DNA from: a virus
Taxonomy: Duplodnaviria; Caudoviricetes
Virus record (IMG/VR): IMGVR_UViG_3300020047_016550
Span: 9,392-73,391 of that record
Direction: 5' to 3' (one strand)
Length of the DNA stretch: 64,000 nucleotides
The notes under the pieces are model-generated. The model searched no databases and was not told the origin of the DNA. It saw only the letters and a list, made by a program, of their open reading frames with translations. The position numbers and the translations under genes are program-made. Below, piece after piece: positions 5,353 through 46,800 of this stretch. Every line of letters starts with the position of its first letter. The stretch's first letter is position 1.

Positions 5353-5403
5353 AAATAAAAACCGTTGCTCCGGCGCGGTTTTTTTTTATTTATTAAAACA
5401 ATC

Positions 5404-6330
5404 ATGGAAAAACAGGAACAAAAAATTAAAGGTCACATAAGAATGACCGATGAAGAAATGACTCTTGAAACGGGAGAAAAGCTGTTCAGGATAGAACTGG
5501 CCGTTGACTGTAGATGGGGAAAAGCCGGCGAAAAAGGCGGATGGATCCAAAGTTTGGATAATATATCAGATGATGCATGGGTTTCCGATAATGCAAAAGT
5601 TTATGGTAATGCACGGATTTCTAATGAGGCATGGGTTTTCCGTAATGCAAAAGTTTGTGATAATGCACACGTTTACGGCAATTCATGCATTTACGATAAT
5701 GCACACGTTTACGACAATGCGCACATTTACGGTAATGCACGGATTTCAGATAATGCACAAATTTTCGGTGATTCAAGAGTTTGGGCCAATGGAAAGGTTT
5801 TCGGTAATGCACGGGTTTACGGTAAAGCATGGGTTTACGGTAATTCACATGTTTTCGGTAAAACAGAAGTTTACGGTAATGCACGGGTTTGCGGTAAAGC
5901 AGAAGTTTACGGTAATGCACGGGTTTACGGTGATTCACCAGTTTTCGGTAATTCACATGTTTTCGGTAGTGCACGGGTTTACGGTAAAGCATGGGTTTAC
6001 GATAATGCACGGGTTTACGGTAATTCACATGTTTTCGGTAAAGCAGAAGTTTACGGTAATGCACGGGTTTGCGGTAATGCACGAATTTTCGGTAAAGCAT
6101 GGATTTACGCCGATAAATGGTCTAAATCACCTTTACAGATACAGGGAACAAAGGACTTTGTATGCAATTGTGCAAAAAACCGTTTATGCATAGGTTGTAA
6201 AGATAAAACATTTGAAGAATGGCTTGAATCTTACGAAAAAATAGGAATAGAAAATGATTACTCCGAAAGTGAAATTCAAGAATACAAATCTTACATTGAC
6301 CTGGCAATCCGTTTATACGGCCAAAAATAA
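5404..6330 (+). CDS. Hexapeptide-repeat left-handed beta-helix protein (GNARVY repeats)
   Basis: N-terminal FRI.....GEKGGWI domain, >30 hexad repeats on an 18-bp DNA repeat, C-terminal IGC motif; common phage family. Confidence 0.85.
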   Translation: MEKQEQKIKGHIRMTDEEMTLETGEKLFRIELAVDCRWGKAGEKGGWIQSLDNISDDAWVSDNAKVYGNARISNEAWVFRNAKVCDNAHVYGNSCIYDNAHVYDNAHIYGNARISDNAQIFGDSRVWANGKVFGNARVYGKAWVYGNSHVFGKTEVYGNARVCGKAEVYGNARVYGDSPVFGNSHVFGSARVYGKAWVYDNARVYGNSHVFGKAEVYGNARVCGNARIFGKAWIYADKWSKSPLQIQGTKDFVCNCAKNRLCIGCKDKTFEEWLESYEKIGIENDYSESEIQEYKSYIDLAIRLYGQK

Positions 6331-10256: not shown

Positions 10257-10295
10257 CAAAATGCCCTACGGGGCTTTTTGTTTTTTCTAAAAAAA

Positions 10296-10772
10296 ATGAA
10301 AAACAGCGCAGAATACACCAATCCGGCCATAGTAGCCGAAATAGAGGTAGTTTACCGTTCAATGGTGAAAGCATCCGAAAGAAAACAGATAAAAAGCAGT
10401 TCAGACGCTGCCAAAATATTCCGTGAAGCATACCCGGACGGCCAAATTGAATACAGAGAATTATTTTATGCAATGTATTTAAGTAAAGCCAATAAAGTAT
10501 TGGCAATACAAAAAATAAGTGAAGGAGGTACTGCTTCAACTGTTGTTGACGTTAAAATGATAATGCAGAGTGCCCTTAAAACAAATTCACATAGAATAAT
10601 TCTATGTCATAATCATCCAAGCGGAGCTTTAAAACCAAGTGAAATGGACATAAAACTGACTAAAAAATTAATTCAAGCCGGTGTTATTTTAGAAATTGAA
10701 ATAACGGATCATATAATATTAACAGAAGAAGATTATTATTCTTTTGCTGATAACGGAATAATGAATGCATAA
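10296..10772 (+). CDS. radC: RadC-like JAB domain protein
   Basis: RE.F, GG...T.VD, HNHPSG...PS..D, DHII motifs; VAEIEVVY N-terminus typical of Bacteroidota members. Confidence 0.92.
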   Translation: MKNSAEYTNPAIVAEIEVVYRSMVKASERKQIKSSSDAAKIFREAYPDGQIEYRELFYAMYLSKANKVLAIQKISEGGTASTVVDVKMIMQSALKTNSHRIILCHNHPSGALKPSEMDIKLTKKLIQAGVILEIEITDHIILTEEDYYSFADNGIMNA

Positions 10773-12107: not shown

Positions 12108-12213
12108 TACCACCAACCCCGGACCGATTGACGGCAAAATAACAGTAAATTAAAAGTGCTTTTCAATCTTTCAAATGAAAGCCCCGTTCGCGGGGTTTTC
12201 TTTTTTCATAAAC

Positions 12214-13215
12214 ATGGAAAAATTAGAAACAATTGAAATTACAGAAAAGAAAAATGTATTTTTCAGTAAATACGCCGGAAAGTTTGACACTCCAAAAAAA
12301 ATAAACAGAAGTTCCAAAAGTATACCGGAAAACTTCATTGATAAAATAGAAAATGGAGAATGTAACAGCGCAGATATTGAAATGCTACAAAATATCGTGC
12401 CAGTTTATACTTACAAAACCTGTTTAACAATACACGGAAACTTTCCTGACATAAACAGAACAAGAATAGGTGTCTATAAAAACATCATTCAAAACCAAAA
12501 CGGAAGTCTTGAAATACGATGGAGTGCAATTGACAACCACAAAAAAAAGCAAATAAAGGAATATATACGCCCCTATTCAGGTTACAATGTCCAAGAAAAC
12601 AGCACATCCGGAATATATTTTGAAAAAAATGTAGTAACAAGCAACAAGGCAGAAGCTTATAAAGTACTTGCAGAAATGAAAGCAGAAGCCGAAAATATGA
12701 ACATACCAGGAATGATGGCAAAATTCTATGTAATGGGATATTCATATTGGGGCAGATACTATATAACACTTACAATTTTACCGTTTAAAATACACGGAGA
12801 TCCTTTGGAAATAGCAGCAACAATAGTAGGAGTAAACAGTAATGAAATGCTTGAAACTTACAATGCAAGAAAAGCAGAACAAGAACGGAAAGACAAAGAA
12901 CACAAAGAACAAATTGACCGAATAAACAATATAGTAGAAGAACAAATGCAAAAAGCATTAGAAGGAATAAAGCATCTCAGTAAAACCAAAATAGAACCGG
13001 TGCCCGGATCCGTTTATATTGTACCTACAGTTTCCAATTCAAAAAAACCATGTTACCGTTTTTATAAAATAACAGAAAAAGGCAGTTTTGGTAGAGTGAA
13101 AGTTGAAACATACCTTGCTGAAAGTCCGGAAATTGACAATAGTAAGTTTACTCCATTAATGAAAGGTAAACAACTAAAAGTTTCTGAAATAACAACAAAG
13201 GAAGTTTATAAATAA
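12214..13215 (+). CDS. Hypothetical protein (333 aa), A-rich coding sequence
   Basis: Long ORF flanked by two near-identical CCCCGTTCGCGGGG hairpins. Confidence 0.8.
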   Translation: MEKLETIEITEKKNVFFSKYAGKFDTPKKINRSSKSIPENFIDKIENGECNSADIEMLQNIVPVYTYKTCLTIHGNFPDINRTRIGVYKNIIQNQNGSLEIRWSAIDNHKKKQIKEYIRPYSGYNVQENSTSGIYFEKNVVTSNKAEAYKVLAEMKAEAENMNIPGMMAKFYVMGYSYWGRYYITLTILPFKIHGDPLEIAATIVGVNSNEMLETYNARKAEQERKDKEHKEQIDRINNIVEEQMQKALEGIKHLSKTKIEPVPGSVYIVPTVSNSKKPCYRFYKITEKGSFGRVKVETYLAESPEIDNSKFTPLMKGKQLKVSEITTKEVYK

Positions 13216-13256
13216 ATATAAAACCCCCGTTCGCGGGGTTTTATATTTTCTTAAAC

Positions 13257-13526
13257 ATGAAAAAAACTTATGACGTACTTTCTCCCGACGGTTTTCCCAT
13301 TAACCCTGAAATGGATTATCCAAACATTAAAACCGCAATCAAAGAAACCAAAAAATTTGCCAAACGGTATATCGGTCAGGGATATTACTCTTCAAACAAG
13401 GGACGTATTCCCATTGATTACATACCAAGCGAATGTACCCTTGTTGAAAAAGACGTAAACGGCAAACAAGTTTCTATTCCTTTGTGCGATTATTTACCCG
13501 GACGTTTTAACCAACCTTATTTCTAA
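13257..13526 (+). CDS. Conserved phage hypothetical protein (DVLSPDGF...RY..QGYYSS)
   Basis: Recognisable motif. Confidence 0.75.
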   Translation: MKKTYDVLSPDGFPINPEMDYPNIKTAIKETKKFAKRYIGQGYYSSNKGRIPIDYIPSECTLVEKDVNGKQVSIPLCDYLPGRFNQPYF

Positions 13527-14122
13527 TGTATACGGAACTTACACAACATGTCAGGTATATGCCTGAAAGCAGTAGAAAACCATATTTTATTGCAAAAAAT
13601 CAGGAAAATTTTATTAAACTTGTTCCCGTATTCAAATCTGAAGAGAAATTTGACTTTGAAGAGTTTATTACTCCAAGACGGGTATTTTGGGCAGATAATG
13701 AAGAACTGGAAAATGTGGAAAAATTTTTTGAAAACGTAAATGCTGTCATACAATCACATCATCAAAGCATATTTTTGATTAAAAAAATGGCACTTGAAAA
13801 ACTTATCCAAGAATCAGAAAAACAGGCCGCGGCCTTTTTTCTTTTAAAAAACAGAAAAATGAAAATAAAAAAAATCAGGCTGGAAAAAGCCTTAATCACG
13901 CCGCAACAAAAGATTTCCGTTTCAATGGAAGCTGAAATCGAACCGGGAGAAAATCACGGGGAATGTCTTTTAGAACTGGAACAAAAGATTAATGAGGCAA
14001 TCGGAACCGAAGGAACCCTCGAACTTTATCCTTCCGGTGTTTCAAAAGTTACAAAGCCCCAAAAAGCAGAACCGGAAGAAACTCCCGTAATCGAAAACAA
14101 CGAAGAAAACGACGATTTTTAA
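13526..14122 (+). CDS. Hypothetical protein; probable internal start at 13859
   Basis: Open frame contains a hairpin/T-tract leader element at 13824-13858 and an in-frame ATG. Confidence 0.6.
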   Translation: MYTELTQHVRYMPESSRKPYFIAKNQENFIKLVPVFKSEEKFDFEEFITPRRVFWADNEELENVEKFFENVNAVIQSHHQSIFLIKKMALEKLIQESEKQAAAFFLLKNRKMKIKKIRLEKALITPQQKISVSMEAEIEPGENHGECLLELEQKINEAIGTEGTLELYPSGVSKVTKPQKAEPEETPVIENNEENDDF

Positions 14123-14141
14123 CAAACAAATACCAATTAAA

Positions 14142-14675
14142 ATGCTGGAAGCAATATTAAACGCATTGGGTGAAGGAAAAGACATCCAACTGAATTTCAA
14201 AAACAACATGGTAATCATCGCCATGAAAGAAAATGATGAAGAAACATTTAATTCTCCCGTTATCGTAAAGAAACTGGATGAAAGTGTTATCGCTTCAACA
14301 ATCGTGCAGTATGCAAAAATTCTTTCCACTGTTGAAGAACCGGATGTTACGGGCCTTGAAAATGTAAAATCGGTGAAAAAAGAACCTAAAGCTGCCGGAA
14401 AAACAAAAGCAAAAGCAAACGCTGAAGAAAAACCGGCTGAAAAAGAATCAGCTGAGGAAAAACCAGCCGATCCAAAATCAATCCAGGGCCCAAATCCTGA
14501 GTTGTTCAAATTGCCGAGCGAAGAACGTATTGAAAAATACAAATCAGAAAGTTCCACAGCATCACAGGCTTCTCCCGGAGATGAATTTCCCGAGCCCGTA
14601 AATGAGCCGGTAAAAGAAGAAACGGCATCGGCCACTGACGTAGCATCTTATTTAGACGAAGAGGAGGATTTTTAA
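14142..14675 (+). CDS. PRTRC system protein E-like
   Basis: Short N-terminal alpha/beta domain plus long K/E/A/P-rich acidic tail; position directly before protein C. Confidence 0.6.
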   Translation: MLEAILNALGEGKDIQLNFKNNMVIIAMKENDEETFNSPVIVKKLDESVIASTIVQYAKILSTVEEPDVTGLENVKSVKKEPKAAGKTKAKANAEEKPAEKESAEEKPADPKSIQGPNPELFKLPSEERIEKYKSESSTASQASPGDEFPEPVNEPVKEETASATDVASYLDEEEDF

Positions 14676-14894
14676 ATGAATGAAGCACAAGTAATGGTGA
14701 GAGAGTTCTTGGTAAAGAACGGCACCAAAGAAACCGTTTTCCCGGATCCGGGAATAAAATTCACCGTCAATGAAGTGAAAAAAATGGCATCTTCCGTTTA
14801 TCCGCCTGTTTTAACTTCGTCAATAGAAGGTCCTGTTTATGAAGGTGAAAAAGCAAAATATACTTTTGTATGTGGAGCGAAGACCAAAGGTTAA
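14676..14894 (+). CDS. PRTRC system protein C (ubiquitin-like modifier)
   Basis: R.F, PDP....V.EV.....S.YP, IEGP, Y.F and C-terminal TKG. Confidence 0.85.
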   Translation: MNEAQVMVREFLVKNGTKETVFPDPGIKFTVNEVKKMASSVYPPVLTSSIEGPVYEGEKAKYTFVCGAKTKG

Positions 14895-14928
14895 AAACTG
14901 TCGAACTTAAAAACAAGTATCTTAAAAA

Positions 14929-15945
14929 ATGGGGAAAATCAAAAAAAGAGACAAAAACCATCGAACAAATGGAAAATCTCAAATTCGATTTCTACAAAAA
15001 TTCAAAAACGATACCTGTTCCCACGGAATGTTTGAATGTAAAACTGTAATAACCGATTTAAAGCCCAGATTAAAACCCTGGGCTTTTTTTACGGTTGATT
15101 ATAACGAAAGCGGAAATTATGAAACACACTGGGAGCAAGTTTTTGAAAATTTTGTTGAAGCTTTTTCCGGATATAAAAAGTTTGACATTATCAGCGAAAG
15201 TAATCTGGACAAAAATCCTGAAGAAATGATTGATTTGATGGGCCAGAAACTGAATTTGGTTTCTTATGTCCATTATACCGATTTTTACGGAATTGCCAGT
15301 TTTGTTGAAAATATTGAGCTTAAATGGGTAAAAGTTTCATTAATAAACAGTCTTCCCGAAAAAGAAAAGATTCTTTTTAAATGTTTGTGTTATCTGCTTT
15401 ACCATGTCTTTGACAAAGGGAACGATTCAGTTTATATTGATGAACTTTCAGAAATCATTACCGAAACGGAACAGTATTCAAAAAATGAATTTACGGTTGA
15501 GTTGTTTTCGGGTCATTCGAGAAACAGAAAAAACAGTCTGGCTTTGACAAAAAATGAAAGAAAGGCAAAAGAAATATATTCTTTCATCGAAAATGCTTCA
15601 ATACATGAAGTAATCCAGATACTTGAAGAACAGTCTTACTCAAACACAAGAAATCTGCTTTTAAAAGCCGCAAAATGTTATTCACATACTGACGGTTATT
15701 CAATCTGTTGTGTTTCTGATTTAGGCACAGGTGAAATATTTCCTGTCGATCCGGTTGTTTTTTCATGGGATTTTGATGATTCTGATTTAAATTATGGATA
15801 CATAGTAACGGTAATTCCGCTTCATGAAAATGTACCTTTTCAAAGTCCGAAATACAAAAAAATAGAAAAACTGATTTATTTATCATTAAAACTTTTGACC
15901 GAATATGAGCGCTTTGAAACTCACGAATGCGTTACTGGTGTTTAA
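14929..15945 (+). CDS. PRTRC protein F-like / uncharacterised operon member
   Basis: Position between C and B as in Bacteroidota PRTRC loci; sequence similarity not established. Confidence 0.45.
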   Translation: MGKIKKRDKNHRTNGKSQIRFLQKFKNDTCSHGMFECKTVITDLKPRLKPWAFFTVDYNESGNYETHWEQVFENFVEAFSGYKKFDIISESNLDKNPEEMIDLMGQKLNLVSYVHYTDFYGIASFVENIELKWVKVSLINSLPEKEKILFKCLCYLLYHVFDKGNDSVYIDELSEIITETEQYSKNEFTVELFSGHSRNRKNSLALTKNERKAKEIYSFIENASIHEVIQILEEQSYSNTRNLLLKAAKCYSHTDGYSICCVSDLGTGEIFPVDPVVFSWDFDDSDLNYGYIVTVIPLHENVPFQSPKYKKIEKLIYLSLKLLTEYERFETHECVTGV

Positions 15946-16501
15946 AACCGGCGACAATCATAATTATTACGAGCTGGCCACTTACCGGCAAATTTCGGAA
16001 ACTTCTTATGAAGAAACTGAAAGAAAACCTGTTACCCCCGATTTAATCAGGAAGTTGAATCTTTTTACCATTCCCGAAAAAGAAAAGTTTTCACTGAAAG
16101 GAAAGCTAAACCGAAACGTCATAAAAATGGATGTTTCAAACCAGGGATATGAAATAACGTGGGAGCCCAAAAACTACAGTTCAACCGTAATTGTGGTAGG
16201 AGAACATTTTCCCGTGAAATGGCCTAAAATCATTTTTAAGGCCAATGTTGACAAATTATGGGTTTACGTATTAAAACAGGGAAAACTTATGTCAAATCCT
16301 TTCCCCAATGTTTCCGGAGGTTCCCAGATGTGTTTTGGCAATATTGATAAAAAAAACTCATTCAGTGATTTTGAAGACTTTTTTGAAACATTTGAAAGTT
16401 ATTTTTTCAATACTTCATTTACGGATTCAAACGAATTTCTGGAAAGTTGTATCAATTTAAAACCGAATTTAACATTACTGAAAAACCATGCATCTGATTA
16501 A
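15905..16501 (+). CDS. PRTRC system protein B (prokaryotic E2 family D)
   Basis: ALLVFK start, WP..IFK, NPFPNV..GS.MCFGN with candidate catalytic Cys, YFFNTSFT. Confidence 0.82.
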   Translation: MSALKLTNALLVFKTGDNHNYYELATYRQISETSYEETERKPVTPDLIRKLNLFTIPEKEKFSLKGKLNRNVIKMDVSNQGYEITWEPKNYSSTVIVVGEHFPVKWPKIIFKANVDKLWVYVLKQGKLMSNPFPNVSGGSQMCFGNIDKKNSFSDFEDFFETFESYFFNTSFTDSNEFLESCINLKPNLTLLKNHASD

Positions 16502-17222
16502 TCATTTTATCCAAAAAGAAGGAAACCAGGATCCGGTAACAATTGCGGTAATAGGCGCCGGCGGAAACGGCTCACATTTTCTTTATTCACTGGCGGCATT
16601 ACAGAATGTTCTTTACCAAATCCGGGGCCAGGAATTGGCCGTAATGGTATATGATGATGACCTGGTTGAAAAACACAATTGCGGAAGGCAGTTGTTTTTC
16701 GAACAGGAAATAGGAATGTCAAAATCAAGAGCCATAATCCAGAGAATAAACAGAAGCTATGGCTATTCATGGGAATTTCGTGAACAAAAGATGAAATCGT
16801 GCCCATCGGCAAACATTGTCGTTACTTGTACCGATAACATTGCTTCGCGAAAAATCATAGAAAAAGCACGTTCCAAAACACATCAGCACAGATACCATAA
16901 CCATTATTCCAATTTGTATTGGCTGGATATGGGTAATGACCGAAATTCAGGAAACGTGATTTTGTCAACTTTTGTAAAATCCGGTAATAATTCACTTAAA
17001 AGCGTATTTGAAATTTTCCCGGAATTGATGAAAAAAAAAGAAGACAATAAACCTTCATGCGGAATGCTGGAATCTTTAATGCAGCAAGATGTTTTTATCA
17101 ATAAAATAATTGCGACACTGGCCGCAAAAATGTTGAAAACGCTGTTTTTGGATTCTACAACAAACCACCATGGAATATTTGTTGACATAGAAAATCCTTC
17201 AATGACAGAAATACCCTGCTGA
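16488..17222 (+). CDS. PRTRC system ThiF/E1-like activating enzyme
   Basis: VIGAGGNGS, DDD.VE..N.GRQLF, CTDN, WLDMGN, PSC..ES...QD.FIN. Confidence 0.92.
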   Translation: MHLINHFIQKEGNQDPVTIAVIGAGGNGSHFLYSLAALQNVLYQIRGQELAVMVYDDDLVEKHNCGRQLFFEQEIGMSKSRAIIQRINRSYGYSWEFREQKMKSCPSANIVVTCTDNIASRKIIEKARSKTHQHRYHNHYSNLYWLDMGNDRNSGNVILSTFVKSGNNSLKSVFEIFPELMKKKEDNKPSCGMLESLMQQDVFINKIIATLAAKMLKTLFLDSTTNHHGIFVDIENPSMTEIPC

Positions 17223-17251
17223 CGCGGGGTTTTTCTTTTATGTAAAATTTT

Positions 17252-36575: not shown

Positions 36576-39500
36576 TTACATACAATCCATTAAATTTTTT
36601 AACTCCTGGCCGTATTGTCCGGCCGTATCAAATTTAAGCGAAGATAATTTGATTTGCTCAGCTGCCGTTTTAATTTTTTCGGGCCCGTATTCTTTGGCCA
36701 GCTCATTTTCCATCAAAACAGAATTTTCTTCATTAAAATCAAGCGAATTGAATGATTCGGGTATGCTGTAATTTTTTTTACTATTTGACTGATTTAAAGT
36801 TTCTTCATAAACATCTTTTATTGCCTGCATGGCTTTTTCTGCTTTTTCATCACCCACATACTCTTTTCTTGGTTGCCATTTTCCTTCAATCTGAACATTA
36901 TAGTTTTCAATATCTCTACTGCCTATTCCTGCAAAGTTTTTAGTTAGTGTTGGTGTTTCTGTAGGTTCAAATATTCCTATATCTGTTTTATTAACTACTT
37001 TATATTCAATTTGCCAAGCTTCATTTAATCTTGGTTTAACTTTAGAATTAAAATAATCTACACTCCACCCTTCTAATTTACTCCATTGTTCAGCATTTTT
37101 ACCACTACCTACTAATTTATGTAAGGGTTTTGTAACTTCGACTAATACTTTTTCTCCATTCTTACCTTCCCATTCTATAATATCTCCTTCTTTTAATTTT
37201 TTCCAATAGTCTATATGTCCATCAGATTCATATCTTGTAGTTGCAGTTCTTTCACCTTGCTTAATAGCTTCTATTGTAGAAATTGATTTAACATCTGACC
37301 TTTTATTATCATTATAATTAAAAGTCATTTTACCTTTAGCTGAAATAGGTTTTTCTTTTGTTTTTTGTTCAAAGCTATACCACTGTTCAGTGTTTATATC
37401 CCAAACATAAACAGGTTTATTTAACTTAATACCTAATTGCACAGCAGTATTTGTACCTCCTTTAACACCATTATCATCACTATTTAATTTAGCAATAGCA
37501 TAGACAGCATCAGCATTATAAACTTGGTAGTAGTTTCTGATCTGAAGATTCTTCTTTATTGTATCTGTATACTTAGTAAGATACTCTGGTCCAAGAAGAT
37601 CATTTATTTCAGCTTCAGCTTTATCAAGTTGTTCTTGAGTTAGAATAGTAGCACCTTGAATTTGTTTTGAAATTAATCCTGTTTTAGTAGTATTAAGCTC
37701 TGTAACTAATCCAAAGTTATCGAACAGCTCTTGTTGTAACCACGTTGCAAATCTTGTTGGTAATTTTGCTTTCTCGGTAGCAAATCCTGGAGGAAATACT
37801 AGTTTGGAATATCCACTATTGTTTATCCTGGATATCAATTCAGTATTTAATCTTGTAAACTCTTTAAAATCTGAATCTGTATCTGACCATTGACCACCAG
37901 CAACCTGAGTTTTCTTGGTGATTATAGCTAATGCATTTGGATTCCTGTTTCCATTTCTATCTGTCCTGATAATAGCTTGTGTCTGAGATACATTCTTATC
38001 AGTATCAAGCATTTCAGCATTCTCAGTAAAAATGAATCCTGTATCAGGATTATTTGGAGCAGTATCTTTTGTGTAATTAACTTTGGTAATCTGAACCCTA
38101 TCTCTTAGTTGCTTAGAAAGATTTGCATTTCCGGCATCTTTATAGTGTTTATGATTAGTAACACCATATTCTCTACCAATTAAATCCCAATAAGTATCTC
38201 CCCCATAAGATTCTCCTGAATGGTTTACAAAATCTTTCATTAAATTCGTTTTCTCTTTATTAAAATCAAATTCTTTGATTGTTTTCGCTTCACCACGTAT
38301 CGCCAGCGGCTTAGAATTTGCTTTGTCCAGATAAAATACTGTCCACTCTTCACTTTCCGCATTTTCTTTGGCCCTCACAAAACGGCTCTGGCCTTCTTTA
38401 AGCTTTTTGAATGCGGAATCTCCTTTATAGTCACTTTCGTCAACTTTGCTTATCATATCAGCCATTCCGGGATTATAACGTATCACGTTTGCTATCCACG
38501 TAAGTTCTTTTTTATAGCTCTCATTTTTTTTGTAGGCATTGACAACCGCTTCTTTTCTTTTACCGAATTCAATCCGCGTCTGATCATCAATTATGGAAAA
38601 ATAACCTTTTGCTTGTACGGACTCCGACATTCCGTTGTTTAAAACCTGGTTTGCCAGTAAAATCATTTTTTCTTCAAAAGGAAGCCGGCCGAATGCTTCT
38701 CTTACTGAATTTTCATAGTTTATGTCACCCACCCGTTTTTTATAATCGGAACTCAATGTTACCGAATCGGAAGTTTTTCCGATATCAATGCTTAATGCTT
38801 CTTTTAAAATTCCTGACTGTTTTTGCACAATTGCTATGGCCTGCTTTTGTACAGTTTCCGCATCAAAGTCAATAACGGCTGATTTGTCTATGATGTCGTA
38901 AATGGTTTCATAAGTTGATTTGATAAATCTTGAAGGCATGGCTTGAAGTATATTCCATCCGTTAAAAGAAAAAAACGGATCTATGGCCATTGCATTTCTT
39001 TGCATTAATGAATAACCCATTTTGTTTCTTTCAAGAATCGGACTTGTTTCGAATCCCGGCCAGTCAAATTTTTTCTGGAGTTTTACCATGGACTCCCGTA
39101 TTTTCAAAAGCTCCCAGGGCTGAAACGTAAAACTTTTGGTCATTTTGATAATCGGATTTAATACAAATTGGATATCCGATGAAACATTCATAAGTTTTGA
39201 AAGATGAACCAAAGCCATTAAACGGTCAATCGGTTTATCTGAATTAACATCGTATTGAGTAAGCTCAAACTTGTAAACATTGAAATTTCCGTCATAATTG
39301 TATGAGTCATTAAGCTCTTTGTTTTTTCTTAATAAATCGTCAATTTCACCGTCAATGATATCTTTCAATTCTTCATTTGAAAGCATGCTTTGTCTTTTGT
39401 TGAGCTTTTCATAGATTTCAGTAAAGAACGGAGATTGCATATAACGGATGACTTCTTCGTTTGAACTTCCCGACATTCTCATTACCGAAGCCAGGGTAAT

Positions 39501-42500
39501 GGTATCCGGTCCCATACGCAGTTCATCCATGCCTTGTTCTTTTGCATTGTCTGTCGCGTGGTTAAGTTTGTTTGCCAGCGCAAAAATAACGTCGTTGAGT
39601 TTTTTTGAAATTACTCCGTTTACTTTTTCCAGGTTTAAAAAGTTTCCGGAAGTAGGAGTGACTTTTCCTTTTAAATATTTTAAAACAGGAAAATTGAATT
39701 TGTGTTTTATGCCCTGTGAAAGAATATAAGTAAAAGCGGCATTGTCGTTTGCCTGAATGGATATTCCCGTTTTACCGTTGGAATTTGCATCCCATGAAGC
39801 AGTCATATCAACAAGACTTAACTGGCTTGGTTTTTCTTTGTTTGACGCACCCCGTTCGTTTTGTGCAATCTCAATATCTTTTTGCGTGTCAATGGGAGTA
39901 GTAAGATATTCGTGGTTTCTGGGTTTTCCGTTTAAAAGCGTTTCGTATTCGGATTTCATTGCTCCGATTATTTTATTGCTTAACGCTTTTTTCTTTTTGT
40001 CTTCAAGCCGGCGTTTTTCTTTTTTCATTTCAACGGCCCGTTCATCTGAAACTTTAACGGATTCAGAATTTAAAAAACGGTCAATTTTATCTAAAATATC
40101 CTGATCTCCTTGTGTAAACGTAACAAGTTTTCCTTCTTTTGTACGGTATTCACCCATTACATGCCGCTGGTCTCCGTCATTGTCGGAACCGGACATTTTT
40201 TGTGTTCCGGGATCCACTATCATCATGTTTTCCATGTCGCCCGTCGTAAATCCGGCAATTTCAACAAGTGAAACCGAATGAAGCGCGGAAGTCGGGATTC
40301 TTTCAATCAATACCTTGTCTCCTTCAACACGAAATTTTCCGTTTTCTTCAAAAATAGGATTTGTTCGGAATTCTCCCCTGTAGTTTTGGGCTTCTTCCAA
40401 CGTAGAGAATGTTTCACCGGCAATGTATCTGTTTGCAAATTCAGCGGGCATGATTACTTCAGGAAAAAGCCAGTGTTCTTTTCCTTCAATGTCTTTTACC
40501 GCTTTTTGGTTTTTACCTCCGTAAGTACGGAGTTTTATTCCCAATGCAGGAACTTCGGTAAGAATGTTTTTGTTTACTTTGGTATCAATCGCTTTTTTCT
40601 TTATTTCGGAACCTATGAGGGTATAAATTGTTTTTAATGCATCACGGTCAAACATCCAGTTATATCCCGGAATTTTCATTTTCTCGATAACCGGATTATA
40701 ATCACCTTCTTTTTGTCTGTTGATTACACGGTCTTTTGCATTTTTTCCTTCTTTTAAAAGTTCTTCCTGTAACCGTTCGGTTTCAATACGTGCAATTTCA
40801 TTTAATGAAGATACAATTTCCGGGCCGCTGTCCGTAGGTAAAAAATATGATATGCCCTGTGTGGGCATTTTACCTTCGGTTTCTTCCGTTGACTGTCTTT
40901 GGTCTTGCTGGACATAATAAAATTCATTATTCAGAATTTCTGTTTTAACCGATTCCGGATTTGAATCATTGTCAATTAAAAATGAAGCATCAGCCCATCC
41001 GTTTTTTTTCTTTAATGCTTCGAAAAATGCATTTTTTTGTTTTTCAATACGTTTTTCATTCAGTTTTCCTTCTTTGCTTCTTTTGGCTCCCGTCGTAAAT
41101 GAAATCTGATCAATTTCTTCGGCATCCATTAAATCAAGAATGTTGAGAAGAGTGTAATCAGGCATACCTCTTTCTTCATTAAAATTTGCAGCAAATTCAG
41201 CAAATTCACGGCTTATAAGAACGGTATTTGTTTTAATATAGGTATGGGCACCCGTAGCTAAATCCATTTCATTATAAATCGCTTTTATTGATCCGCCGAA
41301 ATCAAAAGTGTTTCCAAACGATTTGTTTATTTTTGAATTCTGTACTGAATTGATAATCGTGATTCCGTCAGCCAGCTCCGCTTTCATCGGTAAACCCAGG
41401 CTTTCAAAAAATGAAGAGTAAATCTCCGAATCAATTTCAAAATCCGGAATAATAAGCGCTTTCTGTGTTTTACCCATTCCCCCTTCTATTTCCGTATCGG
41501 GATTTACCCCGGAAGCCCTCATTTCGCGTTTTACTTTGTCGATAAAACCTTTGGAGTAATTTTCAGGATTTCCGTAATAAAAATGATCCGTAAATATTTT
41601 GTTCACGGCAAAAGAATAAGCAAACTGTAATGCAAGGTCATTGGCGGTAATTCCGTTTACCGTAAGTTTATTTAAACCTATTTTGCTGCTTACCGTGTTG
41701 AGCATTTTCAAATAAGTATATGAATCCTCCAAAAGTTTTTCTTCGGTGATTTCATTGGCTATTTTATTTATTTCGGGATTTTTGCTTTTCTGTAAATCCG
41801 AAAGTATTTTTTTAGATTCTTCTATTCCGTATTTTTTAACCGGAACATAAATCTGTTTTCCCTTATCGGACATTACCTCGACAAGCTGGCCCGTTTTTCC
41901 TTTTCCGAATAAGTTCTGGAAATCATTTCCAAAAAACATTATTAAATGATTCAACATGATGTCGGAACCTTTCTGCTGGTCCGCTTTCATGTTTCTGTTA
42001 CCCTGGATTAAAGCCCCGTCAAACAAAATCATTGTTCCTTCAGGGTTTCCGTTTTGAAGATAATCATTCCTCATTACGGTTCCGTTTTCCAGCTCATAAT
42101 CAAAACGCCTGTTTTCTTTTATTTCATCGGTTTTGATTTTGTGGGTAAGCTTGGATATCGTTGAATTGTATTCTCCGGTAGTTTTTAAGTCTTTGTTTAC
42201 GTCCTGGTATGAAGAAGCCAGCTGGTCCGGTTTCGGATCTAAATTCAGTCTCGCAATGTTGTCAATCTGTGGACTGATTACTTTTCCCGTAGTTGCATTT
42301 ACCGTTTGTTTTGTCAGAGAATCACGGACTTTTTTTGCCGACAATACGGGCTCGTCTATTTTAATTTTGTCATATATGTTGTAGTAAATATTAGTTCTGG
42401 GCATTATAAACGGAGCGTCAATTGCATATTGCATGAGATAAAAATGTGCAAGATTTTCAAATCCTTTGTAAGTAGGCTTTTTGCCTGTTTCAATTGACAT

Positions 42501-43841
42501 TGAGGATTTATTGTATTCTTTCATCATTTCCGGCGGTATCCCGGTTAACGTATGGGCAAACATAAGCTCCATGTTTTCGTATTCAAGAAGCTGTCTGTAT
42601 ATGACTTCGGTTCTTTTGTCTTTTTGGGCTTCATCCAAAAACTGAAGCGCAATTTCTTTTGCTTTTTCAGGATTTGAAGCTACGGCCGAAACGTCTTTCA
42701 AAAAGTTTTTGTAAGTCATTTCAACTTCCTGGTTCCCATAATTTATTTTCACTTTACGGGCCATGAACTGGGCAGGAAAACTTTGTTTTGCATAACTGTT
42801 CAGTTCACCGATAATCCATTTTCTTTTTTTCTCAAAATCAGAATAGGCATCTTTCATTTTTTTTACCGCTTCTTTTTTGTTTTCACGGTTTTCAAGTATG
42901 TCACTAATGGTTGAGCCCTGAATGAATTTGGTAAGGTTTGATGCTATTACGAATTTATTTTCGAGTGCATTGCTCAATCCTATCTGATAAGTGCCGTAAC
43001 TGTTTTCAATTACCCGGACGGCCGGAACCATAATCATTGATCTTACATATTGACGAAGGGAAACTAAAAGTTTGTTTGATGCATTTTCTGAGATTTCTTT
43101 TACCCAGGTGCCCAATTTTTCATTGTAGCTGTCCGCGGCCATAAAATATTCTTTTACGGATTTCTGCGTCATCTGAACGTTTTGCACATAATCAGAAATC
43201 ATCCTTAAAAGATAATCCGGAGTAACGTTCATTTTTTTGGCAACCGGGCTCCAAAGCTTATGCATTTTTTTGGTATCACCGTCAAAAGTTTTTTCATCAA
43301 AAGCCTGCGCCACACTTTCTTCCATCGCTTCTTCCAAAGCTTCGTTGTTGGTTTCAAATATTTCGGCAATGGCTTTCATTTTTTCTTTACGGGACAAAAG
43401 ACTTTCATTTAACGAAGCTTCCGTAAAACTTTCAAATCTTGACGAAATCATTGAATGGATCGCGTTAAAGTATTCAATGATTTCGTTATTGTTGAGTGAA
43501 TTGGGATTCACTTTTTTATCCATGATTAATTTTCTGGATATTTTTTCGGCCATACGGTAATTGTCGCTTTCATCCAGAAGTTGTGCTTCGGACATAATCA
43601 TGCTTTCATTGGCATCAATGATGTTTTTTACTTTTTCAGAAAGCTGTGTACGGTTTTTTTTAATCGCGCTGTTTATTTCATTAAAAAGCTGGCTTTTGGT
43701 AACAACTCCTTCGTTGATGAAATTTGCAATATTTTCTGATGCATAAAGCTCGTTTAGGATATCTTCATAAGAAGTAAAGCCTTCCTTTACGGAAAGCTTT
43801 ATAAATTCTCTTATCTCATCTATCGGAACGCATTTTTTCAT
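36576..43841 (-). CDS. Virion-packaged two-barrel RNA polymerase polyprotein
   Basis: RIPT....S then GSDNDGD catalytic loop (40170-40184); size and position as in crAss-like phages; start MKKC overlaps upstream stop (ATGA). Confidence 0.85.
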   Translation of the reverse strand: MKKCVPIDEIREFIKLSVKEGFTSYEDILNELYASENIANFINEGVVTKSQLFNEINSAIKKNRTQLSEKVKNIIDANESMIMSEAQLLDESDNYRMAEKISRKLIMDKKVNPNSLNNNEIIEYFNAIHSMISSRFESFTEASLNESLLSRKEKMKAIAEIFETNNEALEEAMEESVAQAFDEKTFDGDTKKMHKLWSPVAKKMNVTPDYLLRMISDYVQNVQMTQKSVKEYFMAADSYNEKLGTWVKEISENASNKLLVSLRQYVRSMIMVPAVRVIENSYGTYQIGLSNALENKFVIASNLTKFIQGSTISDILENRENKKEAVKKMKDAYSDFEKKRKWIIGELNSYAKQSFPAQFMARKVKINYGNQEVEMTYKNFLKDVSAVASNPEKAKEIALQFLDEAQKDKRTEVIYRQLLEYENMELMFAHTLTGIPPEMMKEYNKSSMSIETGKKPTYKGFENLAHFYLMQYAIDAPFIMPRTNIYYNIYDKIKIDEPVLSAKKVRDSLTKQTVNATTGKVISPQIDNIARLNLDPKPDQLASSYQDVNKDLKTTGEYNSTISKLTHKIKTDEIKENRRFDYELENGTVMRNDYLQNGNPEGTMILFDGALIQGNRNMKADQQKGSDIMLNHLIMFFGNDFQNLFGKGKTGQLVEVMSDKGKQIYVPVKKYGIEESKKILSDLQKSKNPEINKIANEITEEKLLEDSYTYLKMLNTVSSKIGLNKLTVNGITANDLALQFAYSFAVNKIFTDHFYYGNPENYSKGFIDKVKREMRASGVNPDTEIEGGMGKTQKALIIPDFEIDSEIYSSFFESLGLPMKAELADGITIINSVQNSKINKSFGNTFDFGGSIKAIYNEMDLATGAHTYIKTNTVLISREFAEFAANFNEERGMPDYTLLNILDLMDAEEIDQISFTTGAKRSKEGKLNEKRIEKQKNAFFEALKKKNGWADASFLIDNDSNPESVKTEILNNEFYYVQQDQRQSTEETEGKMPTQGISYFLPTDSGPEIVSSLNEIARIETERLQEELLKEGKNAKDRVINRQKEGDYNPVIEKMKIPGYNWMFDRDALKTIYTLIGSEIKKKAIDTKVNKNILTEVPALGIKLRTYGGKNQKAVKDIEGKEHWLFPEVIMPAEFANRYIAGETFSTLEEAQNYRGEFRTNPIFEENGKFRVEGDKVLIERIPTSALHSVSLVEIAGFTTGDMENMMIVDPGTQKMSGSDNDGDQRHVMGEYRTKEGKLVTFTQGDQDILDKIDRFLNSESVKVSDERAVEMKKEKRRLEDKKKKALSNKIIGAMKSEYETLLNGKPRNHEYLTTPIDTQKDIEIAQNERGASNKEKPSQLSLVDMTASWDANSNGKTGISIQANDNAAFTYILSQGIKHKFNFPVLKYLKGKVTPTSGNFLNLEKVNGVISKKLNDVIFALANKLNHATDNAKEQGMDELRMGPDTITLASVMRMSGSSNEEVIRYMQSPFFTEIYEKLNKRQSMLSNEELKDIIDGEIDDLLRKNKELNDSYNYDGNFNVYKFELTQYDVNSDKPIDRLMALVHLSKLMNVSSDIQFVLNPIIKMTKSFTFQPWELLKIRESMVKLQKKFDWPGFETSPILERNKMGYSLMQRNAMAIDPFFSFNGWNILQAMPSRFIKSTYETIYDIIDKSAVIDFDAETVQKQAIAIVQKQSGILKEALSIDIGKTSDSVTLSSDYKKRVGDINYENSVREAFGRLPFEEKMILLANQVLNNGMSESVQAKGYFSIIDDQTRIEFGKRKEAVVNAYKKNESYKKELTWIANVIRYNPGMADMISKVDESDYKGDSAFKKLKEGQSRFVRAKENAESEEWTVFYLDKANSKPLAIRGEAKTIKEFDFNKEKTNLMKDFVNHSGESYGGDTYWDLIGREYGVTNHKHYKDAGNANLSKQLRDRVQITKVNYTKDTAPNNPDTGFIFTENAEMLDTDKNVSQTQAIIRTDRNGNRNPNALAIITKKTQVAGGQWSDTDSDFKEFTRLNTELISRINNSGYSKLVFPPGFATEKAKLPTRFATWLQQELFDNFGLVTELNTTKTGLISKQIQGATILTQEQLDKAEAEINDLLGPEYLTKYTDTIKKNLQIRNYYQVYNADAVYAIAKLNSDDNGVKGGTNTAVQLGIKLNKPVYVWDINTEQWYSFEQKTKEKPISAKGKMTFNYNDNKRSDVKSISTIEAIKQGERTATTRYESDGHIDYWKKLKEGDIIEWEGKNGEKVLVEVTKPLHKLVGSGKNAEQWSKLEGWSVDYFNSKVKPRLNEAWQIEYKVVNKTDIGIFEPTETPTLTKNFAGIGSRDIENYNVQIEGKWQPRKEYVGDEKAEKAMQAIKDVYEETLNQSNSKKNYSIPESFNSLDFNEENSVLMENELAKEYGPEKIKTAAEQIKLSSLKFDTAGQYGQELKNLMDCM

Positions 43842-46800
43842 AATGAACACGGATTTCTTTTGTTGTCAATATTAGCAATTATTTCCTGTTTTTTCCTGGC
43901 TATTTCCTTTTTTTCGGTTTTGGCCTGTTCAATCATTCTTTCAAAACGTATGTCAATTTTTTCTTCTTTGGTAAGTGTAGGATCCGTTTCGGTTTCTATC
44001 ACAGAACCCGTTTGCGGATTTTTGGTTTTGGTCTGGAGTCTTCCGTTTTCGGTAATCTTTCTTGAACCTAAACCTTCAGAAATATTGCTTACCAATTTTC
44101 CGGCCGGATCACGTACTTCAATTTTATCTCCATAAGGTGTGCCGTCTTTTCTTTTTGCTTCGTCAAAACGGTTCCATTCGTTTTTTGGAACATAGTTCAA
44201 AGTCACCGGTAATGATTCTCCGGGTTTTAAGTCTTTGTATTTTTTTGGCAGTTTATAGGAAACCATTTGTAGTTCACGGCCCGAATTGTCAACTACCGCA
44301 ATCCGCGTTTCTCCGTTTTTTTGTGCCAGGGCCTTTACTTCCATTTTATACTGGCGTTTTCCTGTTTTCTGAAAAACATCGGCCAGCTTTTTTACGGTAG
44401 TTTTAAAACGGTTTGCATGGCTTAGTGCGTTATGTTTTTCAATGTCCGTTTTTCCTTTTATTTTTTGTTTTGATTCAGGTAATGATTCTTTTTTTCCAAG
44501 ATTTTGGTAATAATCATTTACGGCATCAATATCTAATCCGAATTTTTCAGAAAAATTTATTCTTAAGTCTTCAATTTCTTTTGTTAAATCAGTTCTGTTA
44601 TTTTCTTCTTCAATATTTTTTTTCGTAATTCCTGAAGGAAATTCATTTACTGTTTCAATAATTAAATCAATGACATCTTGTTCATCATATCCTGAATGGC
44701 CCTCACTTCTTAATTCTTCCAATAGGTAATCCGAAACAAAAGTATCTATTTTGACTCCTTTTTCTGAAAACCATTTTTTTTCAGATACATCGGTTACGTT
44801 TTCTTTTATTTCTTTTAATGGTTTAAATTTAGTTTTGAGGATATTTGACATAATTATTGATTTCAAAGATCTTGAACCGTTTTTTTGTGCATTTTTTGAA
44901 ATTTCATAATTATAATCTTCAATAAATTCAATGACTTGTTTTTTTGTTTTTGGAGTTAAAACATTGTTCCACCATACATTTATCATGTTTGGTATTTTAG
45001 AAGCTTTTTTTGAATGGCTTATGGTATGTTTTGATGATTTTTTTTCTGTGCCTTGATTATCCGTGAATATAATCTTTTCATTTTCAAAATCTATTTGAGC
45101 TTTTGTTGAAGAAGTTAATTTGTATCCTTGATTTTGTTTTGATTTAGATGATTTTGTATTTACAGTTTCCGTATTTGTTTTTTGAGCCGGTGTGCTTGTT
45201 TTGGTAGATGGTGTACTAACGGCTTCGGCAGCTGGCAATTTCGTCCCAATTTCTTTTTTCCCACTTAATATTTCAACAACATCATTTTTAAATTTAGATA
45301 ATCCATCTCTGTTTATTACATTACTATCAGTTTGCTTGTAATCAGCCGATTTTAATTCAAAAATAGCCTGTTCCATTTCAGGAGTAATATTATCCGTAAG
45401 TTCAAATATTACAGAAGCACCTCCTTCTCTCCCGAAAACATCACTTCCAGACATCGCAACTTGAATGTATTGTTTTTTATTTTTACTTTCAAAAACTCGA
45501 TATTTTGCACCCGTAGTTCTATAATGTTTTTTATCCGTAGTCTTTTCACCTTCAAAATTAACGTAAGTAAAGTCCGCAGATGTACGAGGGTCGGTATCAA
45601 ACGTCCTCATTTCATTTTCACCCCCTATTGTGTTTTCAATTTGTGTAAGTCCAGATAATGTAGAGTTCGATATTACTGCATTTTCATTAATTATAGAACC
45701 TTGATTTTGTTTTTCAACCGTTGCCTCACCCACTACCGTTTCAGCAGGCGAAACAACAGGGGATATTTCACCCCCGTTGTCAACCGTAGTTTGCTCAACT
45801 ACGGGGGGCACAACTTCAGGTGAAACAGTTTCAGCCGAAGATTCTTTTTTCTGTTTTTTGGATACGGGAACAACCATATATTCACCCGGTGAAATTAAAG
45901 TTCCGTTACTCCATACTTCATTTTTTATTACCCGCGTTACAGAACCTTCCGGCAAATCAGAAGTTGCATCAGGTATAATTTTTGATTCTTTTGAAATTTC
46001 ATTTGAACTTTTATATGCCGGTATTTCATACTCAGTACCGGCCAGGTCTTCAATTTCCGCTTCATATATTTCTTTTTCCGCACCCTCAAGCTCAGAAGGG
46101 TTGACATTGGCCAGCCATTTAACTTTGCTTTCCATGTTCACTTTTTCATTTATTGCCATGGCCAAAGCATCCTGGGAATTTTTCACGGTTTCTTTTTCTT
46201 TGTCGGCTAAAACAAAAGGATCGGTCTCAGGAATTTCTGCTTCCGTTTTTTCAGTTTCGGGCTCTGCTTTTTTTGCGGTTACTTTTAATGAAGGTTTTTT
46301 ATTTGCGTTTTTGTCCCTGTTTGCGATTTCATTCCCGGCAATGGCCAGAAGTTCTTTTTGATGTTTTAAATGCTCCTGGGCCCCATGTAAACCGTTTCCG
46401 CTTATGGTTTCTTCACCGTTTACGATATCCCATTTAAACATATCATAGTCAGGAAGATTTTTCTCGCTTTCGGTTTTAATCAAAAGTTCTAAATCGGCAA
46501 TATTTTTTTTGGTTGTCTCAATAAGGTTTTCAACTTTGTCAATGGTAACTTCCGGCATTGTTTTTTTTACCATTGCTCTTTCTTTCTGCAAATGTCCGGA
46601 TATGGCCACACTTTCAATTTCCATCAGTTTATCCCGTTCTTCCTGATTCATGGCCATTCTTTTTTCACGGGTTTCTTCAACGGCCTGTTGGGTGCCTGTT
46701 TTTTTCCCGTCAGGATCTGATGAACCCATGGCCATACCCATTAAAAAAGTTCCGGCCAGAAAGAATGTGGCATCACTTACATTTCCAAACTGCTGTTTAA

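Follow-up and report, generated by a model that had tools for sequence, protein, structure and literature searches.

Does a phage that carries genes for a ubiquitin-like protein (Ubl), an activating enzyme (E1) and a conjugating enzyme (E2) encode a working conjugation pathway, and if so, on what would that pathway act? The question is raised by a gene unit in a 64,000-nucleotide stretch of viral DNA (hereafter the window), which represents bases 9392-73391 of the 73,391-bp virus record IMGVR_UViG_3300020047_016550 in IMG/VR. An earlier note on this DNA had read the core of the unit as a PRTRC-type Ubl/E2/E1 cassette in the early region of a phage. We find that it is a reduced variant of the known PRTRC cassette, lacking both JAB and ParB and strongly diverged, and that it lies in the replication arm of a real phage. 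On balance we lean towards the view that it encodes an active Ubl conjugation cascade, which would need no processing protease and would be expressed together with the DNA-replication genes of a phage distantly related to the crAss-like phages.

The E1, the tag and the E2-like protein

The ThiF-type protein matched the PRTRC family model TIGR03736 with 195.8 bits, above the cut-off of 144.75, and retained every invariant column of an alignment of 28 homologues (GxGGxG, Asp56/Asp58, Arg67, Lys79, Asp116 and Pro189-Ser-Cys191). The GAGGNG and PSC motifs by which it had been recognized as an E1 both fall within these invariant columns, the second of them containing Cys191. Profile comparison ranked the adenylation domains of eukaryotic UBA6/UBA3/UBA1 (E 6e-11) above ThiF (2e-8) and Cap2 (1e-5), as well as above MoeB.

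The ubiquitin-like protein (protein C, the tag) had been described as ending in TKG, and direct reading of its gene gave A-K-T-K-G followed by TAA. It matched Pfam Prok_Ub (PF14454) with 42.3 bits (cut-off 25) and TIGR03738 with 45.4 bits, 0.55 bits short of the cut-off of 45.95. A glycine followed by the stop codon likewise ends 67 of 68 distinct homologous tags, mostly as G-T-K-G. The lone exception is the 129-residue tag of Ralstonia phage Dina, in which GRKG is followed by 62 more residues and whose gene adjoins one for a JAB protein. Since the window tag is translated already mature, it should not need a processing protease; as judged from these C-termini, the JAB-less form of the cassette makes its tag ready to use.

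Protein B matched Pfam Prok-E2_D (PF14460) with 40.5 bits (cut-off 25), while its score against the PRTRC model TIGR03737 (31.2 bits) fell below the cut-off of 131.45. Pro107, Pro132, Asn135, Cys143 and Gly145 were invariant among 80 homologues, and again in a set of 59. The active-site pattern reads PFPN-x7-C-F-G, and the spacing of 8 between Asn135 and Cys143 is that of the classical E2 HPN...C site. Cys143 lies in the MCFGN stretch, where the earlier note had placed the candidate cysteine of an E2-family protein, and it was present in 80/80 relatives.

Sequence searches of the PDB with B and C found no relatives, and none of the solved structures belongs to the PRTRC family. An AlphaFold (AF2) model of B, built from 59 sequences, reached a predicted local distance difference test score (pLDDT) of 87.7. 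Although a Foldseek search of the PDB with this model returned nothing below E 0.001, an exhaustive VIA-align search yielded UBC, UEV or RWD folds in about 30 of the 35 top-ranked solved chains. These matches had Z-scores of 5.2-3.9 and root-mean-square deviations of 3.6-4.7 Å over 99-124 residues, covering model residues ~56-192, and the model also aligned with bacterial CdnG-E2 (8hsb, Z 4.8) and BubCD (9eav, Z 3.9). The Z-scores are modest, and it is the agreement among the matches that supports the predicted UBC fold of protein B. Residues 1-60 (15905-16084) form an N-terminal beta-sheet domain with a faint likeness to Pur-alpha, PC4 and COMMD-type folds (Z ~3.5), too weak to interpret.

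Taken together, these features make tag conjugation the most likely activity of the cassette, as far as sequence and modelling can indicate. In the cascade that we envisage, the tag, translated already ending in Gly72, would be adenylated at this residue by the E1 with ATP and taken onto Cys191 as a thioester. It would then be handed to Cys143 of protein B and finally joined to a target lysine, aided by the F-position protein, in a presumed adaptor role, and by the E-type protein. A different outcome of the same first step would be that the adenylated tag is thiocarboxylated in the manner of ThiS/MoaD and supplies sulfur for nucleotide, tRNA or DNA modification, with no protein conjugated. Membership of the E1 in the ThiF/MoeB superfamily, the single Gly at the end of the tag, the lack of an E3 and of a deconjugating enzyme, and a PAPS-reductase-family gene two genes downstream in the closest relative would all suit such a sulfur carrier. 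We nevertheless regard it as quite improbable: every cassette includes a UBC-fold protein whose Asn/Cys site is invariant, neither a rhodanese nor a cysteine desulfurase was found in the unit with NCBIfam and Pfam, and the E1 profile stands nearer to eukaryotic conjugating E1s than to ThiF/MoeB.

Extent of the unit and its diverged or missing parts

The unit had been placed at 13859-17235. Because convincing plus-strand hairpins occur only at 13225-13238 and 17213-17230, we set its start at 13257, which brings in two further open reading frames (ORFs) ahead of the E position (Table 1). Position 13859 does have a meaning of its own: the last 87 residues of the second of these ORFs, counted from the Met at 13859, form a small domain that is conserved in this lineage. 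The ORF is 40% identical (E 2e-16) to a 92-residue protein of the closest relative, locus L002 (L002:3370-3648), and the start of the L002 protein corresponds precisely to position 13859. The tight coupling and the lack of an internal hairpin reported earlier held up well. The E gene directly adjoins the C gene, the F gene runs 41 nucleotides into the B gene, the B gene runs 14 nucleotides into the ThiF gene, and the sole further plus-strand hairpin site is a weak one inside the E1 gene (16807-16821; 6 pairs, 3 G-C).

Table 1. Genes and flanking hairpins of the cassette unit (positions are those of the window)
Feature	Coordinates	Strand	Remarks
Terminator-like hairpin	13225..13238	+	5 G-C pairs, then T-run; ends preceding unit; upstream edge of cassette unit
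89-residue ORF, first gene of unit	13257..13526	+	No NCBIfam/Pfam match; stop shares one base with next start codon
198-residue ORF	13526..14122	+	No family match (NCBIfam, Pfam, PHROGs); acidic tail ending ...NDDF
E-position protein, 177 residues	14142..14675	+	Probable diverged PRTRC protein E
Ubiquitin-like tag, PRTRC protein C / Prok_Ub, 72 residues	14676..14894	+	Ends Thr-Lys-Gly-stop
F-position protein, 338 residues	14929..15945	+	Public gene call: start 15028, 305 residues
E2-like (predicted UBC-fold) protein B, 198 residues	15905..16501	+	Prok-E2_D match
ThiF-type E1, 244 residues	16488..17222	+	TIGR03736 match
Terminator-like hairpin	17213..17230	+	7 pairs, 5 G-C, then T-run; at E1 stop codon; downstream edge of unit

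The gene order E-C-F-B-ThiF that had been proposed stands in part. C, B and ThiF carry the expected features; E and F are names given by position, and neither protein has an NCBIfam or Pfam match. The E-position protein consists of a small N-terminal domain, a disordered linker rich in Lys, Glu and Pro that contains QGPNPELFKLPSEE, and an acidic tail ending in EEEDF, an architecture that agrees with that of 34 canonical E proteins. It is homologous to the protein encoded at L002:3670-4149, which is the best match in its locus to a hidden Markov model (HMM) of the canonical E N-terminal domain (E 0.009) and whose TPESLEEGI aligns with the consensus GTPEELDEGF. Position, architecture and this transitive link make the window protein a probable diverged PRTRC protein E.

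Acidic tails closed by Asp-Phe are found on two adjacent proteins of the window (NDDF and EEDF) and on both of their counterparts in L002 (LDDF in each case), whereas canonical E proteins end in plain poly-Glu. Such a tail resembles the C-terminal tip of SSB that recruits partner proteins.

The F-position protein is an orphan. An exhaustive HMMER search of 1.84 billion representatives returned only two matches, the protein itself and its L002 counterpart (28% identity), and alignment with canonical F by hhalign was weak (probability 47% over 40 columns). Its structure models were poor (pLDDT 35 for a single-sequence AF2 model and 0.34 for that of the ESM Atlas), and a search of the ESM Atlas gave no usable match. 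Possibly it is a replacement for the PRTRC F adaptor, or a very diverged form of it. In PHROGs, none of E, C, F and B is represented by a family.

In canonical PRTRC cassettes a JAB domain is supplied by protein A (DUF2016 plus Prok-JAB). No gene stands between B and ThiF in the window, Dina protein A has no homologue there, and across the genome the Prok-JAB model picked up RadC alone, with a score of 17.3 bits that lies below the cut-off. A search with TIGR03735 (protein A) returned nothing, and its control was silent too. RadC itself (10278-10772), which had been pointed to as an upstream JAB protease, does possess an intact H-x-H-x7-S-x2-D motif and matched PF04002 with 128.9 bits. Its proposed role as JAB partner of the cassette was rejected, given that RadC homologues occur near only 4/85 related cassettes and that the tag needs no processing. 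Protein D (TIGR03739) went unmatched among the ten proteins scanned, no genome-wide search having been made with that model.

Losses of this kind might mean that the unit is a decaying PRTRC remnant without current function. A, ParB and D are missing (D with the scope just given), E and F are unrecognizable to the family models, and protein B is shorter than its relatives (198 versus ~233 residues) and has lost a conserved His. Decay is nonetheless very improbable in our judgement, because the catalytic and invariant residues of the E1, the E2 and the tag are all intact, the reading frames are open and coupled, and the seven-gene arrangement is conserved as a whole with a relative only 58% identical in its E1.

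The phage genome and the replication genes around the cassette

The record is rated 100% complete. Its two ends, which lie outside the window, share an exact 121-bp repeat that may either be a physical terminal repeat or have arisen when a circular contig was assembled with overlapping ends. The genome encodes a portal, a major head protein (capsid) and a large terminase that is 28-32% identical to those of Crassvirales. Plus-strand genes at ~4.1-27 kb make up a replication and accessory arm, with a DnaQ-like exonuclease, RadC and two helicases including DnaB, while minus-strand genes at 27-64 kb make up the virion arm; the cassette is placed between the RadC/exonuclease genes and the helicases. 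On the strength of its portal, terminase and head genes, and of this two-arm layout, the genome is a genuine, complete gut-type phage distantly related to the crAss-like phages, and neither an integrative and conjugative element (ICE) nor a plasmid. A nucleotide search of GenBank phages with the cassette gave no match.

Genome papers have referred to a 'ParB/ThiF partitioning cassette', and the family name, together with the association with ParB that the family shows in plasmids and ICEs, would fit a partition or maintenance module; prophage AB2 of Burkholderia gladioli has been read in this way (PMC13366799). As the earlier note had already observed, no ParB is present: ParB_N (PF02195) had no match in the complete 73,391-bp genome, whereas control genomes were matched. 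ParB is likewise not among the most frequent families flanking the dominant form of the cassette in IMG/VR, and the genes examined included neither an integrase nor plasmid-type functions, with no search aimed at them. For this phage, a partitioning role is exceedingly improbable.

A survey of other phages, as suggested in the earlier note, was carried out by an alignment-based scan of IMG/VR, which identified 114 stretches encoding E1 relatives where a single-protein scan had found nothing. Seventy-nine loci (L007-L085) were retrieved with the E1 alignment, and counts for clamp and RadC genes refer to 85 loci. The dominant order in the 79 loci is E (~200 residues), C (68-73), F (~380), B (~233) and ThiF, without a JAB gene.

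For ~65 non-redundant loci, the pair of proteins encoded ahead of E and the pair encoded after ThiF were scanned against Pfam. Upstream, the families of the three DnaN domains (DNA polymerase III beta clamp) were the commonest, found in 13-16 of 127 proteins and followed by VRR-NUC, topoisomerase, helicases and SSB. Downstream of ThiF were DUF488, DnaB, methyltransferases and replication-initiator domains. An iterated HMM located a clamp gene at 24/85 loci; as a rule it precedes the tag gene by 0.5-1 kb, and E alone lies between the two. In a quick, midpoint-rooted E1 tree, clamp-linked loci, among them the two closest relatives of the window, were spread over the deep branches. Three crown clades, all shallow, were without a clamp, and the window and L002 formed a long-branch pair.

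The disordered arm of E carries the motif x-[GSN]-[LMI]-F at 56/71 non-redundant loci, compared to 135/996 background ORFs of similar size. Examples are NQNSLFD, GVGNMFG and EGSLFG, and several are full matches to Q-x-x-[LMI]-F, the bacterial clamp-binding consensus. The recurrence of a clamp gene near these cassettes, together with a clamp-binding-like motif in the E arms, suggests that E may tether the machinery to the sliding clamp. The replisome or clamp is thus our best-supported guess at the site of action, with gene context and a short motif pointing to the target. Through its Lys-rich disordered arm and hydrophobic docking motif, the E-type protein would bring the machinery to the replisome, most likely to the beta sliding clamp, which here would be that of the host, and the modified protein would be the clamp, a clamp-bound protein or E itself. 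Ubiquitylation and SUMOylation of eukaryotic PCNA (Rad6-Rad18 and Ubc9-Siz1) provide an example of Ubl machinery acting at a sliding clamp. By extension, PRTRC-type cassettes could be the prokaryotic counterpart of PCNA ubiquitylation, with E docking on the beta clamp via its LF motif, the E1, E2 and tag modifying the clamp or a clamp-bound protein at the fork, and host replication being reprogrammed for the phage or mobile element; we offer this broader idea as a speculation that is rather unlikely to hold.

Several observations weigh against a conjugation cascade acting at the replisome. No clamp could be detected anywhere in this phage genome, and the E-like motif is degenerate, reading PELF in the window and PEKF in L002. 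Across loci, the Q-type motif showed no association with the presence of a clamp (Fisher p = 1), and the 24/85 figure comes without a baseline for clamp genes in phage replication modules generally. Protein B of the window, like that of its closest relative, is without the downstream His that is present in 72/80 relatives (the window has Asp174), a residue proposed to complete the active site (Iyer et al., PMC1779556). The E-position protein was unmatched by NCBIfam TIGR03741, Pfam PF19556, PHROGs, the HMM of the canonical E N-terminal domain and an E HMM built from the IMG/VR loci, and the F-position protein by TIGR03742, Pfam alpha-hel2, PHROGs and the corresponding F HMM, even though the authentic E and F proteins of Dina were recognized by the two IMG/VR HMMs (E 3e-29 and 8e-11, respectively). 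Finally, the literature searched contains no biochemical test of any PRTRC-type cassette.

A 346-residue protein encoded at 12175-13215 was considered as a clamp and rejected, as it is not the same-length clamp of L002.

The earlier note had favored tagging of host defence proteins or of the phage's own proteins. Counter-defence of this kind, by which the phage would evade Bil/CBASS-like systems (CBASS, cyclic oligonucleotide-based antiphage signalling system) with B or F as the target recogniser, draws on the fact that characterised bacterial Ubl systems such as Bil and Cap2 act in phage-host conflict (bioRxiv 10.1101/2023.09.26.559546; PMC11601603). In a Phocaeicola vulgatus prophage, moreover, PRTRC protein B is reported to be a recurrent mutational hotspot tied to a diversity-generating retroelement, which would fit a recogniser in an arms race (bioRxiv 10.64898/2026.10.01.756045), and the F-position protein is hypervariable, being an orphan here. 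Defence-system models, however, were matched only by superfamily-level E1 similarity: PADLOC gave at most 23 bits, as weak matches of E1-E2 models to the ThiF domain, and nothing for other cassette proteins, while NCBIfam 6A-MBL cap2_3 scored 22.8 bits against a cut-off of 320. The neighbors are consistently replication genes rather than anti-defence genes, and the same cassette also occurs on conjugative-transposon-like contigs and plasmids. We found no evidence that host defence proteins are tagged; the recurrent neighbors are replication proteins, above all the DnaN-type clamp. Counter-defence therefore seems unlikely.

Some further features of the related loci were apparent. Downstream of the cassette the family that recurs most often is DUF488, of the 'active DUF488-N3' subclade, which directly follows ThiF in ~8 IMG/VR loci. 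A freshwater metagenome contig (L003/L007; 40% E1 identity) carries a clamp, RadC, ~12 small genes, E-C-F-B-ThiF and DnaB in a layout like that of the window, indicating that the lineage spans more than one habitat. Seven loci (L010, L011, L015, L028, L029, L040 and L049) are flanked by topoisomerase, Toprim_Crpt, DUF3945 and DUF4099 and have the look of Bacteroidota conjugative transposons, and part of the 'viral' locus set may consist of misclassified mobile elements.

Two proteins elsewhere in the window are recorded here. Residues 2094-2163 of a 2424-residue virion-arm protein (36576-43850, minus strand) are DprA/SLOG-like (phrog_768, E 2e-8). PHROGs 7964 and 5070 each matched a 321-residue protein (5365-6330) in two stretches (E 1e-91 and 2e-79), a pattern suggestive of a domain repeated within the protein.

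Comparison with known systems

PRTRC (NCBIfam TIGR03734-03742) is the same system that Iyer, Burroughs and Aravind listed in 2006 as their 'fourth operon type' (Table 1, row 6d; PMC1779556), in which an E1 and an E2-like protein are accompanied by a small tag bearing a C-terminal Gly and by a JAB protein that has an additional N-terminal domain. The canonical form consists of ParB and proteins A-F, and annotated Ralstonia phage Dina has the order E-C-F-B-A-ThiF, with protein F bearing an alpha-hel2 domain. The window cassette shares with PRTRC carriage on a mobile element, an E1 above the family cut-off, a Prok_Ub tag with a C-terminal Gly and a Prok-E2_D protein, and with Dina the gene order E-C-F-B-(A)-ThiF. 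It differs in being without ParB and protein A, in making its tag mature, in the lack of the downstream His in B and in its carrier, a phage distantly related to the crAss-like phages. Comparison with the TIGRFAM models, which the earlier note had proposed as a check, gave a mixed picture: TIGR03736 exceeded its cut-off and TIGR03738 fell just short, whereas B reached 31 bits against 131 on TIGR03737 and the models for E and F were silent. Relative to the JAB-less cassettes of IMG/VR (L007-L085), the window has the same five-gene order, a tag of the same kind (68-73 residues ending in Gly-stop) and similar replication-gene surroundings, but the E and F proteins of the window and L002 are far more diverged, an extra small acidic-tailed protein is encoded upstream, and the window has no clamp gene.

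The novelty implied for a phage-borne PRTRC cassette was overstated, since there are precedents in the annotation of Dina, in prophages of Burkholderia gladioli (PMC13366799) and Phocaeicola vulgatus (bioRxiv 10.64898/2026.10.01.756045) and in the 114 IMG/VR stretches. The cassette is real and looks intact, and it is a useful lead worth an experiment rather than a first. The earlier statement that PRTRC has no known function agrees with the literature searched, where mentions are annotation or transcriptome reports and none is an experimental test; among the large bacterial E1/E2/Ubl operon families predicted in 2006, PRTRC is the one for which that literature offers no such test. The bacterial Ubl systems named as tested are only Cap2, Bil and Bub (PMC11601603), and these related families turned out to be true conjugation systems.

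With neither a protease nor ParB, the phage form is minimal, and a tag without a processing step should make reconstitution easy. The Lys-Gly end of the tag means that after trypsin digestion modified lysines would carry just one Gly (+57.02 Da), a shift that is the same as the iodoacetamide artefact, and standard di-Gly proteomics would therefore miss adducts.

With Bil (BilABCD), Bub and CBASS Cap2 the cassette has in common E1/E2/Ubl chemistry, here predicted from the genes (bioRxiv 10.1101/2023.09.26.559546; PMC11601596; PMC11601603). The similarity is at the superfamily level only. The window has a separate E1 and E2 and no deubiquitinase, it is encoded by a phage rather than by a host, and it is known from sequence, whereas Bil, Bub and Cap2 have been tested experimentally. 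The comparison with PCNA modification is one of analogy: in the relatives a clamp gene adjoins the cassette and E contains a clamp-binding-like motif, while there is no homology beyond the E1, E2 and Ubl folds and the link consists of gene context and a short motif. In that recurring clamp gene and docking motif, PRTRC-type cassettes nevertheless present a concrete, testable guess at their target.

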